Positions 7,771-64,000 are shown, counted from the stretch's first letter. The stretch: DNA of 64,000 bases from Escherichia coli (GCF_002854065.1 NZ_CP024147.1), one strand, 5' to 3'. The notes: a model not told the origin generated them from the letters alone. A program made the numbers and translations.

Positions 7771-8676
7771 TTAATAACTCGGTTCCTGTTCCCCACTCAC
7801 CACCCGTTGTTGATGGGCGAGCAGGGCGTGTTTATCTACAACGGCACGCAGCAGTTGTTGCATTGGGTAATCATCGACTCGCGTCAGGACCACGGCTTCG
7901 GTGGCCTGTAAAAATCGCGGATCGTCTGTGAGCGGCGTCGCCTCTAATCCCAGCATGGTCAGTTCGTTTTCCGCCACCACGTTCCAGATAACCGCATCAA
8001 CATCGCCTTTAACAATGCGTTGTAAACTCTCGTGATAAGAGAGATCGACTCGTTCCACATCACTACCGCCAAAAAAGACATCAGTCATGATTTTCTGATC
8101 CGCCGAACGGTTATCCAGCCCCACGCGCTTCACGTTTGCGGACTCGCCTTTACGGCAAATCAACTGGTGCTCGCCAACGTAGGTGTGCGGCCCCAACTCC
8201 AGCGCGAGGCATAACCCTTTTTGCGTGAGATAACTTTCCGCCGCCAGTCGGGAAACCACCGCCATGTCATACACGCCGTTAAGTAAACACTCCACGCGAA
8301 TATCCGCGCCGCGCATATGCGCATAGTAAAAAGGAATGCCATCAAACTGGGCTTTCAATCCGCTCGCTAAACCTTCGTACAAGCGGGTATAGGGCAAAGG
8401 CATCGCACATACCACGTTGTTGATATCCACATGACTCAGCAATGCTTTGTTATCCATCTCGACCAGATAACTGCCATTGCGCCCACGGCGTTCAATCCGT
8501 ATCGCTCCGCTTGATTCCAGCGTTTTCAACGCGGCCTGCGTCAGGCCAACGGATGAACGGCATTCAGTGGCCAGTTCATCTATAGTTTTCAATCGGTTAC
8601 CGCACTTTTCACCCAACAAATAACGGGCCAGCGTCGTGATGACGACGCCTTCTTTTTTGATAAACGTTCGACGCAT
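7771..8676 (-). CDS. yhfZ: YhfZ, putative regulator with N-terminal HTH (301 aa)
   Basis: ORF 301 aa; synteny. Confidence 0.85.
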   Translation of the reverse strand: MRRTFIKKEGVVITTLARYLLGEKCGNRLKTIDELATECRSSVGLTQAALKTLESSGAIRIERRGRNGSYLVEMDNKALLSHVDINNVVCAMPLPYTRLYEGLASGLKAQFDGIPFYYAHMRGADIRVECLLNGVYDMAVVSRLAAESYLTQKGLCLALELGPHTYVGEHQLICRKGESANVKRVGLDNRSADQKIMTDVFFGGSDVERVDLSYHESLQRIVKGDVDAVIWNVVAENELTMLGLEATPLTDDPRFLQATEAVVLTRVDDYPMQQLLRAVVDKHALLAHQQRVVSGEQEPSY

Positions 8677-8834
8677 AATAAATTTTCAGTAAATTGAATA
8701 TTTATATCTTCAGGAATTTGAAGATAAGGCGCAACTGTGAGATGTGGAAACGGCGAGGCGCTTCACATTTTTTCGGATTATTGCAAATGAGGATAAAAAA
8801 ACCGGGTTTCCCCGGTTTTGGCATTAATGTTAAA

Positions 8835-9839
8835 TTACGGCTTCGCCACAAAACCAATCGCTTCGTACACCGCTTTTAGCGTACGGGAAGCGTGCGCGCT
8901 GGCTTTTTCTGCGCCGTCTTTCATCACCTGTTGCAGGAAGGCTTCATCGTTGCGGAAACGGTGGTAACGTTCCTGCAATTCAGTCAGCATACCGGAAACG
9001 GCATCAGCCACTTCACCTTTCAGATGACCATACATCTTGCCTTCGAACTGTTTTTCCAATTCCGGGATACTCTGGCCCGTTACCGCAGAAAGGATATCCA
9101 GCAGGTTGGAAACGCCCGCTTTGTTCTGCACATCGTAGCGAACTACCGGCGGCTCGTCGGAGTCGGTGACCGCGCGTTTGATTTTCTTCACTACCGATTT
9201 CGGATCTTCCAGCAGGCCAATAACGTTATTGCGGTTATCGTCAGACTTGGACATCTTCTTGGTCGGCTCCAGCAGCGACATTACGCGCGCGCCGGATTTC
9301 GGAATAAACGGCTCCGGCACCTTAAAGATATCGCCGTACAGCGCGTTGAAACGCTGGGCGATATCACGGCTCAGTTCCAGGTGCTGTTTCTGGTCTTCAC
9401 CCACCGGTACCAGATTAGTTTGATACAGCAGGATGTCCGCTGCCATCAGCACCGGATAGTCAAACAGACCAGCGTTGATGTTCTCGGCATAACGCGCAGA
9501 TTTATCTTTAAACTGCGTCATGCGGCTCAGTTCGCCGAAGTAGGTATAGCAGTTCAGTGCCCAGCCTAACTGCGCATGTTCCGGTACGTGGGACTGAACA
9601 AAAATGGTGCTTTTCTCAGGATCGATACCACAAGCCAGATACAAGGCCAGCGTATCCAGCGTCGCTTTACGCAGCTTCTGTGCATCCTGGCGCACGGTGA
9701 TCGCGTGTTGGTCAACGATACAGTAAATGCAATGGTAGTCATCCTGCATGTTTACCCACTGACGCAGCGCACCCATGTAGTTACCAATGGTCAATTCACC
9801 TGAGGGCTGTGCGCCACTAAAAACGATGGGCTTAGTCAT
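8835..9839 (-). CDS. trpS: Tryptophanyl-tRNA synthetase (334 aa), HIGH-like TIGN and KMSKS motifs
   Basis: ORF contains [10 protein letters not shown] and KMSKS. Confidence 0.97.
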
Positions 9840-10590
9840 TTTTCGATTCCTGATTTTCGCTATGCGGAAGCCCTAATGCGGGCAGAAGGTCATTTATAGA
9901 CTGATAAATTACATCAGGCTGGCTGAGATCGATAGCCTCGCCGTAGTTATATCCGTAGGTTAAGCCAACTGATGGGCAACCTGCCGCTTTTGCTGCCTGA
10001 ATATCATTGCGTGAGTCGCCAACAAACAGCATCTGTTGTGGAGCAATTCCCATCCGCTCAGCCACCAGTAACAGCGGGTCCGGATGCGGTTTTTTGTTTT
10101 GCACATCATCACCACCAATCACCACGCTGAAGTATTTGGCGATATCTAAGGCTTCGAGCAGCGGCGCGACGAACGGCGTCGGTTTGTTGGTGACCAGGCC
10201 TAGCGGCAGGCCTTTAGCCTGCAACGCGCCCAACGTATCGGCAACGTGCGGGAACAAAAACGTCCCCTCTTCGGCAACCTCGCCATAGTAGCGATCGAAC
10301 AGTTTACGCAGAATACGTACCTGTTCTTCTGCCGGAATGTCGTCATCAACGGGCGGTTTACCCATTGTTTTACGCAGAGTCGCACGTTCCTGACGCGCCC
10401 AGGTCAATGCGCGCTCCATCAGAACATCTGCGCCGTTACCAATCCAGGTAATAACGCGTTCTTCACCTGCGACGGGCAACTCCAGCGCATACAGCGCCAT
10501 ATCTACCGCAGCAGCAAGACCGGGAGCACTGTCCACCAGCGTACCGTCGAGATCAAAAGCGACGCCGCGAATATCTTCAAACTTACTCAT
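9832..10590 (-). CDS. gph: Phosphoglycolate phosphatase (HAD family, 252 aa)
   Basis: HAD motif FDLDGTL; overlaps trpS start by 8 nt. Confidence 0.95.
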
Positions 10591-11260
10591 GACTTACCTT
10601 TGCCAGTTCACTGCGCATTTCATCAATGACTTTTTTATAGTCTGGCTGGTCGAAGATTGCCGAACCGGCGACGAACATATCCGCGCCCGCCGCAGCGATT
10701 TCGCCAATGTTGTTCACCTTCACGCCACCGTCCACTTCCAGACGAATGTCAAAGCCAGACTCGTCGATACGACGACGTACTTCGCGCAGTTTATCCAGTG
10801 TTTGAGGAATGAAAGACTGACCGCCGAAACCAGGATTGACGGACATCAGCAGGATCACATCCAGCTTATCCATCACGTAATCCAGATAGCTCAGAGGTGT
10901 CGCCGGGTTAAATACCAGACCCGCTTTACAGCCATTTTCTTTAATCAGTTGCAGCGTGCGGTCAACATGCTCGGAGGCTTCTGGATGAAAGGTAATGATG
11001 CTGGCACCAGCGGCAGCGAAATCAGGCACAATGCGATCGACAGGTTTCACCATCAGGTGTACGTCGATAGGGGCGGTAATGCCATAGTTACGCAAGGATT
11101 TCAGCACCATTGGCCCAATCGTCAGATTGGGAACATAGTGGTTATCCATGACGTCAAAATGCACGACATCAGCGCCAGCTGCCAGGGCTTTTGCGGTATC
11201 TTCACCCAGGCGGGCAAAATCAGCCGACAGAATTGAGGGGGCAATCAAATACTGTTTCAT
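10583..11260 (-). CDS. rpe: Ribulose-phosphate 3-epimerase (225 aa)
   Basis: ORF 225 aa recognised; overlaps gph start. Confidence 0.95.
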
Positions 11261-60471: not shown

Positions 60472-60534
60472 ATTAACGTAAGGTGATCAGGTCAGATTTC
60501 AATCTGGCCTGAGACTGATGACAAACACAAAATT

Positions 60535-60630
60535 GCCTGATGCGCTACGCTTATCAGGCCTACGTGGTTTATGCAATATGTTGAATTTGCATGATTTTGT
60601 AGGCCTGAGAAGGCGTTCACGCCGCATCAG
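60535..60630. repeat. BIME: two REP units in inverted orientation (GCCTGATGCGCTACGCTTATCAGGCCTAC and GTAGGCCTGAGAAGGCGTTCACGCCGCATCAGG)
   Basis: REP consensus recognised downstream of glpD. Confidence 0.75.
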
Positions 60631-60684
60631 GAATGAACAAAGTGCACTTTGTCAACAATCTGACCTACTTTTTGAGTCAGAGAA

Positions 60685-61287
60685 TTACCGCAAAGCCCAC
60701 GCCATCATACCCAACGTAACAAAACTCAGGCACGTTCCCCACTCACTCCACTTCCGTATCTGGCTTCTATTTTTGCTACGCCACTGGCAATAATATCCCA
60801 ACGCAAAACCAAGCTGTGCGCTTATTGGACCGATAAAATCCGTCCACGGCTGAGGCCAAAATGGCGAAAAATTCAGGGGTAGCCAGACAACAAGCAGAAA
60901 GAAATTGCGGATACTTTCCAGCAACGCAATTTTCGCTGGCGCGATGTAAAAAATGATATTCCAGAGGATCAACCATAAATAGACCGGTGCGAATACCAAC
61001 CAACAATGGAGCCTGCTTTTCAATTCAGATTGAGTTCTACGAGTAAATTGCCAACCAACGCAACACATTACACAGAAGAAAAGCGCATATTCAGCCGATA
61101 ACCAAAGTTGTAATTGCAGAAGTGAAATACGCCTGATCATGAGCGGGATTGAGAACAGCATTTCCCCCAGAAAACTCAGCGTGATAATACAAGCAGCCAG
61201 CGCAACCACCATCGGCCACACCAACAACGGCACAATAACAAAGCCGAGAAATAACGGATAAATATAAAGTCTGATTATATTCATCAT
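60685..61287 (-). CDS. Uncharacterised multi-pass membrane protein (200 aa), paralogous to the N-terminal domain of the 505-aa protein upstream
   Basis: ORF 200 aa, mostly hydrophobic; start ATG overlaps upstream stop (TAATG); shared segments with 62305..63822 N-terminus. Confidence 0.75.
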   Translation of the reverse strand: MMNIIRLYIYPLFLGFVIVPLLVWPMVVALAACIITLSFLGEMLFSIPLMIRRISLLQLQLWLSAEYALFFCVMCCVGWQFTRRTQSELKSRLHCWLVFAPVYLWLILWNIIFYIAPAKIALLESIRNFFLLVVWLPLNFSPFWPQPWTDFIGPISAQLGFALGYYCQWRSKNRSQIRKWSEWGTCLSFVTLGMMAWALR

Positions 61288-62279
61288 TATTGTCCTGATG
61301 ATTCGGGGGATGCTTCATACAGCAGCACATACCCCACATCCTCTACCAACTGTTGCCCCTGCTGACTTATAAACCAGTCAACAAATTTCTGCGTTTCCGG
61401 CGTGGGATTTTCACGCGTCACCATATAGGCATCCACAATGTATGGATAAGTGCCGTTGCGGATATTTTCCTCGGTAGGCGCAACGCCATTTATAGCCAAA
61501 AGTTTAATCTGCTTGCGCATTTTGAGCATATTGTCATTCATACGAGTGACGTAATAGTGGAAGGTGTACCCAATGGAAGATGGCGTGTTTTGATAGTCGG
61601 CAACTTCAGTAATTAAACCGCCCATAAGATCAATCACAGTAGATTTTTTAGCTGGCAGCATTGGGGTGTCTTGCATAACCAATCCCTTCATAATCGTTTG
61701 GCTTCCAGAATCTTCAGGGCGCTGCCAGACTTTTATATGTTCGTCACTACCACCTACTTTATTCCAGCGGCTAGTTTTGCTGCTAAAAATATCTTTAACC
61801 TGGTGCTCAGAGAGAGAATTTACCGGGTTATTAATATCAACGATAAAGACAAAGGCTTCGCGGGCGAAAGCGGTATATTTCAGTTTAACACCCGCTTCTT
61901 CTGCACGTTTTTTCTGTCCTTCCGACGGTTGTGCAACAAAAATAACCGTCGCGGAACCTTTAATCAGACTATCGTAGGCTTCAGCTGTTCGGGTTTGCTG
62001 CAAACCATACGCCTGCCAGGCCAGCGAGGTTCGATCCTTATCTTTTGGCTCGGGTACTAATTTATAATACGCGGAGGCATACAGCGGGTATAAGGCTGTA
62101 GCGCCGTACACTCTCGGCCATCTTGACCAATCATCGCTGTAACGTAATGCAGGTTGCCCCCGCAGAGACGTCAGTCCATGGCTCTCTTCTTCCCTGACGC
62201 TGTTATAGTACCCTTCCCGGTCGACACATCCCGCCAGTAACGCCGTGCCTAATAGTAAAACACCGGTGAATTTATTCAT
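61287..62279 (-). CDS. Uncharacterised lipoprotein with PstS-like (PBP_like_2) phosphate-binding-protein-family domain, about 330 aa; start at MNKFTGVLLLGTALLAGC
   Basis: Lipobox LLAGC; motifs QRPEDSGSQT, IGYTFHYY, APTEENIRNG resemble PstS DGSGTSF / GAIGYVEY / SPTEENF; ORF-track start at 62342 would overlap the upstream gene. Confidence 0.8.
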   Translation of the reverse strand: MNKFTGVLLLGTALLAGCVDREGYYNSVREEESHGLTSLRGQPALRYSDDWSRWPRVYGATALYPLYASAYYKLVPEPKDKDRTSLAWQAYGLQQTRTAEAYDSLIKGSATVIFVAQPSEGQKKRAEEAGVKLKYTAFAREAFVFIVDINNPVNSLSEHQVKDIFSSKTSRWNKVGGSDEHIKVWQRPEDSGSQTIMKGLVMQDTPMLPAKKSTVIDLMGGLITEVADYQNTPSSIGYTFHYYVTRMNDNMLKMRKQIKLLAINGVAPTEENIRNGTYPYIVDAYMVTRENPTPETQKFVDWFISQQGQQLVEDVGYVLLYEASPESSGQ

Positions 62280-62304
62280 CTCGCTGATTCCTTTCTCTCG
62301 AGCG

Positions 62305-63822
62305 TTATTCCATTGTTGGATACAGCGGCACATATCCCACATCTTCTACCAGACTCTGCCCCTGCGGCGTTAAAAACCATTCGACCAGTTTTTGTGTTTC
62401 TGACGTTGTATTTTCCCTCGTTACCATAAAGGCATCGACGATATAGGGATATTTGCCGTTGCGAATATTTTCCGCAGTCGGTGTAATACCGTTAATCGCT
62501 AGCAGTTTTATATTTTTATCAGCATTCATTTGCGTCGCGTAATAGCGGAAGGTATAGCCTATTGCGTTGTTTGTATTACGGTATTCGGCAACGACTTTAA
62601 TCATTCCCTCCATCACGCTTGCCACTTCCATTTCCTGCGGCGAGATCATGCGGACATTTTTCATGACCTGTGATTGCATCACTGTCTGGCTGCCAGAGTC
62701 TTCCGGGCGCTGCCAGGTCTGGATCTCCTGATCGTTACCGCCAACAGTACGCCAGTTGGTAATTGCACCACTGAAAATGTCACGCACCTGTTGTTCAGTC
62801 AGGGAATTAACCGGATTATCCGCATTGACGATGAAAACGAATGCTTCACGGGCAAAGGGGGTGTACAGCAAAGTGACACCAGATTCCTTTGCACGTTTTT
62901 TTTGCCCACCGGAAGGTTGCGCCACGAAAATAATATCAGCATCGCCCTTAACGATTTTGTTATATGCTTCTGGCGTACGAGAGTTTTCCAGATAATCCCA
63001 AACGTGAAAATCCTCTGGTATTACACTTAATGCATAAAATGCAGAAGCATAAATTGGGTACGCAGCCGTGGCGCCATCGATTCGCGGCCAGTTTTGCCTA
63101 AACTGAATTTGCGGTTTGCCACGCAGCGGCGTCAGTCGATTATTGAGTTTATCGGGTTGCCAGGCCCAGATATCAATATTTTCGCGTACACCGACACCAG
63201 GATTGAGCTGTTTATATAAATAACCCTGATAACCAGCGACAAAACCAAGCATGAGAAGGATAAACAGGAGGGAATTACGGCAACGTAGCCCGGATGTACC
63301 GGTTAAAGGATGTCTGGTTGGCCGGCCGTACCCCAGCGAAAAACTGATATGCGCGCCAACGGGTATAATGACTATCCACCAGTACTCACCTCCGACTACT
63401 GAGACTAACAAAACGCCCAGCCAGGGGAGCATAAGATCAGCCAACCAACCCGATCCCATCTGGTGAAATTGATAATCTGCCAGATGCAGCGCGATTATCC
63501 AGCCAACCAGGATTAATAAAGCGGGTACTAAAAAAAGACATTGTCGCCAGACGGCTATTTCTCTTTTTTCTGGTGCACTATCGCCTGCCCATACTCGCCC
63601 CGAGAAAAATAGCATTAATGCGCCCAGCGCCAGCATAAAAATGTTGAGCAGAAGGTAAATTGTTGGCGTGATAAGGATATTACAAACTTCAATAATACCG
63701 GCAAGTCCGACACCCAGCATAGCAACAACCGCCGCCAAAAATTGCGTCAGTATGGGGATGCCGAAAAAAGTCATTACCAGCGAGGACAAAATCCATTTTC
63801 TGTTTTGCATTATTCTTTCCAT
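62305..63822 (-). CDS. Uncharacterised fusion protein (505 aa): N-terminal multi-pass membrane domain plus C-terminal PstS-like periplasmic binding domain
   Basis: First about 215 aa hydrophobic; C-terminal domain paralogous to the downstream lipoprotein (QRPEDSGSQT, IGYTFRYY, TPTAENIRNG); -10-like TATAAT 18 nt upstream. Confidence 0.8.
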   Translation of the reverse strand: MERIMQNRKWILSSLVMTFFGIPILTQFLAAVVAMLGVGLAGIIEVCNILITPTIYLLLNIFMLALGALMLFFSGRVWAGDSAPEKREIAVWRQCLFLVPALLILVGWIIALHLADYQFHQMGSGWLADLMLPWLGVLLVSVVGGEYWWIVIIPVGAHISFSLGYGRPTRHPLTGTSGLRCRNSLLFILLMLGFVAGYQGYLYKQLNPGVGVRENIDIWAWQPDKLNNRLTPLRGKPQIQFRQNWPRIDGATAAYPIYASAFYALSVIPEDFHVWDYLENSRTPEAYNKIVKGDADIIFVAQPSGGQKKRAKESGVTLLYTPFAREAFVFIVNADNPVNSLTEQQVRDIFSGAITNWRTVGGNDQEIQTWQRPEDSGSQTVMQSQVMKNVRMISPQEMEVASVMEGMIKVVAEYRNTNNAIGYTFRYYATQMNADKNIKLLAINGITPTAENIRNGKYPYIVDAFMVTRENTTSETQKLVEWFLTPQGQSLVEDVGYVPLYPTME

Positions 63823-63892
63823 TCTTTCTGAATGGCGAAATTATACTCCCCGAGTCCCCTTGCCCCTTCTGGACACTTTTCCGAAATGATGG

Positions 63893-63921
63893 CGAAAAAA
63901 ACGGGACCCTTTGGCCCCGTT
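63893..63921 (-). terminator. glgP intrinsic terminator (minus strand AACGGGGCCAAAGGGTCCCGTTTTTTT)
   Basis: Hairpin followed by T7 immediately downstream of the glgP stop. Confidence 0.7.
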
Positions 63922-63937
63922 CTATTTATTGGTGAAA

Positions 63938-64000
63938 TTACAATCTCACCGGATCGATATGCCAGATATGATCAGCGTACTCTTTGATAGTACGGTCAGA
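63938..64000 (-). CDS. glgP: Glycogen phosphorylase GlgP, 3' end only (…SDRTIKEYADHIWHIDPVRL)
   Basis: Partial ORF running off the window; C-terminal sequence recognised. Confidence 0.8.
   Translation of the reverse strand, partial: SDRTIKEYADHIWHIDPVRL

Follow-up and report, generated by a model that had tools for sequence, protein, structure and literature searches.

A cluster of three minus-strand genes was found at positions 60685-63822 of the Escherichia coli DNA studied here, between glpD and glgP. The window is a stretch of 64,000 nt (GCF_002854065.1, NZ_CP024147.1), and all positions are counted along its whole length. The three genes, referred to below as genes 1, 2 and 3, are paralogs of one widespread, uncharacterised family. 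Gene 1 codes for a full-length family member in which a membrane module is joined to a PstS-like binding domain, predicted to be periplasmic; gene 2 codes for a predicted lipoprotein paralogous to the binding domain, and gene 3 for the membrane module alone. We hold this account of the anatomy and evolution of the cluster, taken as a whole, with high confidence. With regard to function, our preference is tentative and its probability stops just short of even: the proteins would be receptors tethered to the membrane and independent of a transporter, which recognise a phosphate-like oxyanion and act on other membrane proteins by way of the module. An earlier reading of the same DNA, made from the sequence only, had proposed three open reading frames (ORFs) on the minus strand at this place, and all three are present (Table 1).

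The binding domain and its family

Residues 247-485 of gene 1 matched the Pfam family PF12849 (PBP_like_2) with an E-value of 1.3e-30. When the family profile was compared with the PDB, the phosphate-binding proteins 4q8r and 4gd5 were retrieved (E 1.6e-26). An AlphaFold2 model of gene 1, built on 28 homologs, reached a mean confidence (pLDDT, predicted local distance difference test) of 86.5. In a Foldseek search, this model matched 9l8j, 4gd5, 4q8r, 1twy and E. coli PstS (best E-value 1e-14, TM-scores of 0.75-0.79 on the target), and the top 39 matches were all phosphate-binding proteins. The sequence-only reading had assigned this part of gene 1 to the PstS family and had named structure prediction as a check; the assignment was borne out by the profiles and by the model, which resembles solved phosphate-binding proteins.

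In E. coli PstS, phosphate is ligated by T10, F11, S38, D56, R135, S139, G140 and T141. Judged by alignment, the family keeps most phosphate-ligating positions of PstS: the Thr of GATA, the Thr of SRT, and four residues of RPxxSGS (Arg, Ser, Gly, Ser). In a hidden Markov model (HMM) alignment to the phosphate-bound structures 4q8r and 4gd5, the invariant residues T252, R372, S376, G377 and S378 of gene 1 fall on the GSTS and REDGSGT ligating motifs. T252 belongs to GATA and the other four to RPEDSGS, and the near-invariant T283 is also placed on a ligating motif. The domain most likely binds a tetrahedral oxyanion, to judge from these aligned residues, and this would not necessarily be orthophosphate.

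In RefSeq, genes 1 and 2 are named 'PstS family phosphate ABC transporter substrate-binding protein' (ABC, ATP-binding cassette). With TIGR02136, which describes the short type-2 form of PstS and has a curated NCBIfam cut-off of 206.6 bits, gene 1 scored 123.4 bits and gene 2 113.4 bits. All tested members (from E. coli, Paenibacillus, Lysinibacillus and one Oscillospiraceae genome) scored 113-137 bits, with the Bacillota relatives at 119-137 bits. The signatures QRPxxSGSQ, GYxFRYY and REAFVF are invariant in the family and specific to it. The family is a branch distinct from true PstS and received the 'PstS family' name by a looser rule. It shares with the PstS of PstSCAB systems (4q8r, 4gd5, 9l8j, 1twy) the fold, the PF12849 match and the Thr, Arg and Ser-Gly-Ser motifs, and for gene 2 the lipoprotein signal also supports an extracytoplasmic location. 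Unlike PstS, it stays far below the family cut-off, has invariant signatures of its own and an altered loop at the specificity Asp, is fused to a polytopic module, and has neither pstCAB beside the copies seen nor a Pho box in the window. Thus, of the properties expected of the PstS of an ABC importer, the fold was found, and the family score and the linkage to a transporter were not.

No gene for an ABC permease or ATPase lies in the window between glpR and glgP. Likewise, no recurrent Pst-type permease or ATPase was found among the neighbour families of 80 loci, which were kept from the relatives described below for the survey of neighbourhood and architecture. Both results agree with the earlier claim that these components are missing. 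The ABC genes that do recur near family members were considered as a partner and rejected; they belong to a betaine/choline system of the ProVW type, lie about 3 kb away and occur mostly in Lysinibacillus. The whole window held no Pho box (CTGTCATAWAWCTGTCAY) when up to 3 mismatches were allowed, and the best site upstream of gene 1 agrees at 11-12 of 18 positions.

To define the family at large, one genome per species was scanned with the signatures [WFY]QRPx[GDN]SGSQ and [AS][IL]GY[TS]FR[YF]Y. The scan returned at least 600 stretches and confirmed relatives in at least 575 species, and many Bacillota, Actinomycetota, Spirochaetes, Planctomycetes and Bacteroidia are among the matches listed. 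Klebsiella, Salmonella, Phytobacter, Budviciaceae, Leminorella, Leclercia and Betaproteobacteria have full-length relatives of about 480-520 aa. Every complete copy in the 80 loci is membrane-anchored, with 2-6 N-terminal hydrophobic helices when these are counted simply by hydropathy. Two forms were seen there: a long one of about 480-540 aa with 4-6 such helices, and a short one of about 380-435 aa with 2-4 helices, mostly from Bacillales. A literature search returned no functional study of the E. coli genes, and the earlier statement that no function had been assigned to them stands.

The membrane module and the origin of genes 2 and 3

Six helices are predicted in residues 1-206 of gene 1. 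Only P23, W108 and Q199 are invariant in this module, and a near-invariant Pro lies in the possible re-entrant element formed by helices 4 and 5. No significant Pfam match was obtained for the module, and its structure gave only generic helix-bundle matches in the PDB. A phmmer search against 1.84 billion representative proteins returned its own family and fragments of it, with no independent architecture, and did not return gene 3. The structural matches in AFDB50 (E-values up to 0.012) were nearly all proteins named as phosphate-binding or as having a periplasmic binding protein (PBP) domain, together with two unnamed Escherichia proteins. No relative of the module outside the family was therefore found in Pfam, the PDB or AFDB. 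Its identity with the membrane domain of a known transporter, as in a fusion of the ABC or TRAP (tripartite ATP-independent periplasmic) type, was rejected, as there was no homology in the Pfam or structure searches.

By the positive-inside rule, charge counts assign the N-terminus to the cytoplasm, together with the loops that follow helices 2 and 5. It follows from these counts that one of helices 4 and 5 would not span the membrane and that the binding domain would lie in the periplasm. This placement assumes one non-spanning helix among the two; it is favoured by the charge counts and by the homology between helix 6 and the signal peptide of gene 2 (see below), and it agrees with the predicted secretion of gene 2.

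Gene 3 had been said to resemble the N-terminal part of gene 1. A pairwise BLASTP comparison of the two was not significant (E 1.9-2.8). When a profile of 28 N-terminal modules was aligned with a profile of 16 gene 3 homologs using hhalign, residues 4-203 of the gene 1 module matched residues 1-200 of gene 3 with a probability of 98.2% and an E-value of 2e-13. The motifs quoted for the resemblance are included in this alignment. The shared motifs come in the same order: VPLL near the start, G-W/R-x-W/F-x-R, R/H-x-x-L-x-x-P...W, and P-V/I-G/S-A/S-Q-L-x-F-x-L-G-Y-Y. The real alignment scored 72-73, compared with 15-18 for a reversed profile and 22-33 for twelve block-permuted ones. The homology of gene 3 and the gene 1 module is real, as judged by profile comparison. 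Gene 3 gave nothing significant in Pfam or NCBIfam, and its match to a septation inhibitor was discarded as noise (19 bits, with a cut-off of 120). All 98 gene 3 homologs that carry an organism name come from Escherichia, so the gene was found only in that genus.

Gene 2 was aligned with residues 230-501 of gene 1 at 58% identity (E 2e-115). Its signal peptide, MNKFTGVLLLGTALLAGC, matches the lipobox pattern [LVI][ASTVI][GAS]C, and the Gly-Cys of the lipobox is kept in 10 of 11 gene 2 orthologs. According to the +2 rule, Val at position +2 predicts sorting to the outer membrane. Gene 2 is accordingly predicted from its lipobox to be an extracytoplasmic lipoprotein, and the proposal that it is a lipoprotein paralog of the periplasmic domain, with LLAGC as its lipobox, was upheld. 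The gene 2 orthologs align with the full-length proteins from just before helix 6, with LLAGC over FVAGY or LLAGW and the Gly invariant. A protein of Superficieibacter (P0066) is intermediate: after the Cys, it continues with the sequence that follows helix 6 in full-length proteins. This alignment and this intermediate show that gene 2 is a copy of the full-length type that lost helices 1-5 and whose helix 6 became a lipoprotein signal peptide. As the signal peptide corresponds to helix 6, this helix would run from inside to outside, with the binding domain in the periplasm.

Behind the gene 2 ortholog of Pseudocitrobacter, and overlapping it by 4 nt, a gene for a 351-aa protein lies at the position of gene 3. 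This protein consists of the membrane module and a binding domain that lacks the middle third and the GATA motif. A BLASTP comparison of this protein with gene 3 was not significant, and the two are equated by position and architecture only. The comparison suggests that gene 3 is a second full-length copy cut down to its module. The earlier reading had described one fused and one split copy of the same pair of modules. The fused and the separate forms are real, but no simple fission took place, because genes 2 and 3 are separately reduced copies.

All three genes are under purifying selection and represent old, selected alleles, not debris. The ratio of nonsynonymous to synonymous divergence (dN/dS) was 0.12-0.25 for gene 1, 0.10-0.29 for gene 2, and 0.18-0.26 for gene 3 between divergent alleles, rising to 0.43 between close ones. 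Alleles of gene 1 showed a synonymous divergence (dS) of 0.2-0.4, and the two gene 3 lineages one of 0.8-0.9. The whole range of 0.2-0.9 among E. coli alleles (window 60685-63822 compared with loci L001, L002, L004, L019 and L020 of our set) is far above the values typical of E. coli core genes. Such high values suggest that the allelic lineages are old or were imported from other species of Escherichia.

A tentative receptor role and the alternatives

In the reading that we tentatively prefer, the binding domain would capture a tetrahedral oxyanion, that is, phosphate or a phosphoryl group, and the protein would act as a membrane-tethered receptor without a dedicated ABC importer. The membrane module would dock on other membrane proteins and pass an occupancy signal or the ligand onward, with sensor kinases as the best-supported candidate partner. 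Gene 2, as a mobile lipoprotein receptor, and gene 3, as a docking module, would reproduce the function of gene 1 in two polypeptides. This reading was preferred because the module is conserved, is selected even where it stands alone as gene 3 and is excessive for a mere tether, and because no transporter accompanies the family.

Three further observations fit the receptor reading, without proving it. The first comes from three Paenibacillus species, in which a short-type family gene overlaps or abuts (0-4 nt) the 3′ end of a histidine kinase gene. The kinase is composed of 5TMR-LYT, HisKA and HATPase_c and has no extracytoplasmic domain. The arrangement is found at 8637-11113 in locus L046, 8520-10984 in L056 and 8649-11113 in L073, with htpG downstream and no adjacent response regulator; in a fourth Paenibacillus species (L069) the kinase gene appears decayed. 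The second is the precedent of binding proteins that serve as co-receptors. LuxP works in this way with LuxQ, and TorT with TorS. PstS of Pseudomonas aeruginosa is a co-receptor of the chemoreceptor CtpL (PMC8050422). By analogy, a binding protein without a transporter could report its occupancy to a membrane partner, and the coupling of the Paenibacillus family gene to a kinase that lacks an extracytoplasmic sensor domain resembles this arrangement. The known co-receptors differ in being soluble, whereas the present family carries a conserved module of its own and has no family-wide conserved partner. The third is a phenotype of the locus, which is O-island 133 of E. coli O157:H7: in a screen of enterohaemorrhagic E. 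coli, deletion of O-island 133 lowered type III secretion (PMC3378721).

Several findings weigh against a receptor role. Most family members in the 80 loci are solitary, with no conserved neighbour, and clustering of the neighbours gave no partner conserved across the family. The linkage to a kinase was seen in one genus only among these loci, and no neighbour of the Paenibacillus kind is present at the E. coli locus. Counting six helices plainly would leave the binding domain in the cytoplasm, and three invariant residues in the module fit a plain anchor as well as a docking surface. The loop with the specificity Asp, ASRD in 4q8r, reads VAQPS in gene 1, and orthophosphate is therefore possibly not the ligand. 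In gene 2 of Escherichia, the Arg that is otherwise invariant in the family is replaced by His (FRYY to FHYY), and in E. albertii by Leu. The codons for GYTFHYY lie at 61560-61575 of the window, and every other family member examined has Arg; gene 2 may differ from gene 1 in ligand specificity or affinity. Finally, other variants of the locus carry gene 3 but lack gene 2, and in one case even gene 1, so gene 3 need not be paired with gene 2.

A more specific form of the receptor reading, which we regard as somewhat unlikely, would make the family a new receptor class. Here, the PstS-like domain would report occupancy by phosphate or a phosphoryl ligand through the six-helix module directly to partners such as intramembrane-sensing histidine kinases, with genes 2 and 3 as the receptor and the docking module working separately.

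The proteins could instead be extra membrane-tethered phosphate-binding proteins that deliver phosphate to a PstCAB system encoded elsewhere, like the lipoprotein PstS scavengers of Gram-positive bacteria. The PstS fold with its conserved ligating motifs and the lipoprotein nature of gene 2 are in line with such a role. So is the PPK2 polyphosphate kinase gene that follows the family gene at a distance of 128 nt in Leclercia (L015/L016 7625-8449) and precedes it by about 3 kb in Brachymonas (L014 2074-2979), a weak hint at a link to phosphate metabolism. We consider this role unlikely, since no Pst-type permease or ATPase recurs at the 80 loci, all tested members fall under the PstS cut-off, no Pho box was detected and the specificity-Asp loop is altered. 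The selected six-helix module also far exceeds what a tether needs, and gene 3 would be left without a role. Gram-positive and archaeal lipoprotein or transmembrane-anchored binding proteins, and fusions of the OpuABC and GlnP type, also have a binding domain fixed to the membrane through a hydrophobic N-terminal region. The present family is similar in that respect. It differs in that this region is not a lone anchor helix or an ABC permease domain, has no Pfam match or structural relative outside the family, and also persists as a separate selected gene. Such tethered binding proteins and the co-receptors described above are the nearest counterparts in concept, and the family-specific polytopic module sets the family apart from both.

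It is quite improbable that the membrane module is a new channel or secondary transporter fed by the fused binding domain, with genes 2 and 3 as its two-component version. In its favour, binding domain and polytopic module are always joined, helices 4 and 5 are possibly re-entrant and have the near-invariant Pro, and the TAATG-coupled genes 2 and 3 resemble an operon for a binding protein and a membrane component. Against a channel, only three residues of the module are invariant, a conserved network of charged or polar residues is absent, no transporter resembles the module in structure, the short Bacillota forms have 2-4 helices only, and gene 3 also occurs without an adjacent binding protein.

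A role in envelope defence or interbacterial competition has an equally low probability. The proteins would then be immunity proteins, decoys or binders of phosphorylated envelope polymers, and the interval between glpD and glgP would be a hotspot for variable cargo. The locus is indeed highly polymorphic, with proteins that have a YbbD-like N-terminus, other proteins of unknown function and a fimbrial operon as alternative cargo, and its alleles are deeply divergent in dS. In Salmonella enterica (L021 1-10993, L105 5000-19000), two gene 2-type lipoprotein genes lie inside an array of Rhs C-terminal orphans (PxxxxDPxGL ORFs). This array also contains PAAR N-terminal fragments, a HExxH toxin-like ORF adjoining a lipoprotein gene, an Ntox34 fragment with a HEAT-repeat protein, and immunity-like genes, and the order PBP lipoprotein, PAAR or toxin piece, immunity-like gene was seen twice. 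On the other side, PADLOC returned 0 families for genes 1-3 and two alternative cargo proteins, and the low dN/dS is not that of diversifying genes. In most taxa, moreover, the family gene is solitary and housekeeping-like with no toxin nearby, and the conserved anion-binding motifs speak for a small-ligand site. That genes 2 and 3 are functionless, decaying leftovers of tandem duplicates of gene 1 is highly improbable, given their dN/dS values, reading frames that are intact at dS up to 0.9, and the conservation of the stop/start coupling and the lipobox.

The annotation matters beyond this locus. A family found in at least 575 species is named as an ordinary PstS subunit, although its tested members miss the score threshold, the copies examined have no Pst-type transporter genes beside them and its module was seen nowhere else, and its carriers include E. 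coli O157:H7, E. coli B (BL21-type), Salmonella and Klebsiella. The E. coli locus offers a natural dissection of the family, with the fused form, the binding-domain lipoprotein and the module-only protein side by side, and the lowered type III secretion of the O-island 133 deletion is an unexplained phenotype in the literature at this locus. If the receptor reading is true, the family would be a route for sensing phosphate-like ligands outside Pst/PhoR; if it is wrong, the annotation still needs correcting.

Layout of the locus and its variation in E. coli

The features of the cluster are listed in Table 1. For gene 1, two alternative starts are available, at 63813 (chosen by RefSeq, 9 nt further in, giving 502 aa) and at the ATG at 63810; a coding sequence of 502 aa is annotated by RefSeq at the same place in other strains. 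The longest ORF of gene 2 starts at 62342. Genes 1 and 2 are separated by 25 nt, which hold an AAGGA Shine-Dalgarno sequence. Genes 2 and 3 had been described as translationally coupled, and the overlap of the stop and start codons is consistent with that description.

Table 1. Position of the genes, domains and sequence elements of the three-gene cluster in the window.
Feature	Position	Strand	Description
Gene 1	62305..63822	-	505-aa ORF; full-length family member with membrane module and PstS-like domain (predicted periplasmic)
Gene 1, membrane module	63205..63822	-	Residues 1-206; six predicted helices
Gene 1, PstS-fold domain (type II periplasmic binding protein)	62368..63084	-	Residues 247-485; signatures GATAAYP, QRPEDSGSQT, GYTFRYY
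Gene 2	61287..62279	-	330 aa from the RefSeq start; lipoprotein paralog of the binding domain (predicted)
Gene 2, signal peptide and lipobox	62226..62279	-	MNKFTGVLLLGTALLAGC, Val at +2; homologous to helix 6 of the membrane module
Gene 3	60685..61287	-	200 aa; membrane module alone
TAATG	61285..61289	-	Gene 2 stop overlapping gene 3 start; from ORF coordinates and sequence
TATAAT hexamer	63840..63845	-	Perfect; 18 nt upstream of the first gene 1 ATG; read from the sequence
glgP stop and hairpin	63894..63940	-	glgP stop (63938-63940), then GC-rich imperfect hairpin and T7 run; read from the sequence
REP-type palindromic repeats	60530..60650		Between gene 3 and glpD; mark the end of the cluster

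The hairpin and T7 run behind glgP probably terminate the glgP transcript, and this suggests that gene 1 has its own promoter. No good -35 element was seen beside the TATAAT hexamer. A consensus scan for promoters and terminators listed neither the hexamer nor the hairpin, and the number of sites that it found was no higher than in shuffled sequence. A promoter belonging to gene 1 itself, and transcription of all three genes as one operon, are thus putative and based on spacing. The cluster is flanked by glpD, glpE, glpG and glpR on one side and by glgP on the other, and its G+C content is 43-50% compared with 50-57% for the flanking genes. The REP-type (repetitive extragenic palindromic) repeats explain the 128,599 places across E. 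coli genomes to which BLAST aligned this DNA.

The distribution of the cluster was determined in 5426 complete E. coli genomes, and a feature was counted when present at 80% or more of its length. Gene 1 occurs in 3349 of them, gene 2 in 884 (its carriers include O157:H7 and BLR(DE3), an E. coli B strain), and gene 3, in any allele found by megablast, in 2053. The whole three-gene form was counted in 882 genomes. K-12-type genomes have yzgL alone at this place, as the sequence-only reading had stated. The yzgL sequence corresponds to both ends of the cluster (~230 nt at the start of gene 1 and 60 nt at the end of gene 3), and it is therefore the scar of a deletion by which K-12 lost the three genes. 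Because of this deletion, the cluster escaped classical genetics; yet it is present in everyday B strains and is therefore directly testable.

Three other forms of the locus were distinguished. In variant B, gene 1 is followed by genes for soluble proteins of 236 aa and 255 aa and then by a divergent gene 3; variant C is similar and lacks the 236-aa gene, and in variant D a fimbrial operon replaces gene 1. In the variant loci (L002 2232-3712, L004 2234-3001, L005 6734-8214), soluble proteins of unknown function occupy the place where gene 2 sits. At its N-terminus, the 236-aa protein is similar to YbbD (NF007301, E 6e-5), and a Pfam search with the 236-aa and 255-aa proteins returned nothing. 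Downstream of their gene 1 homologs, Klebsiella (L008) and Salmonella (L011) also encode proteins with the YbbD_head domain, and Superficieibacter (L028) encodes similar ones. In Rahnella inusitata (L032 9953-14218), a family member lies between purB and a phoP-phoQ-like pair, with 575 nt between it and the response regulator gene downstream, a neighbourhood that may be coincidental.

Disrupted copies were also observed. Strain CUWW06 (L007 3406-5691), whose genome matches the window most closely, at 100% identity, has IS1 inserted in gene 1. In strain XH992 (L019 587-1187), gene 3 is frameshifted and gene 2 is intact. These two cases indicate that loss events in the cluster are ongoing.

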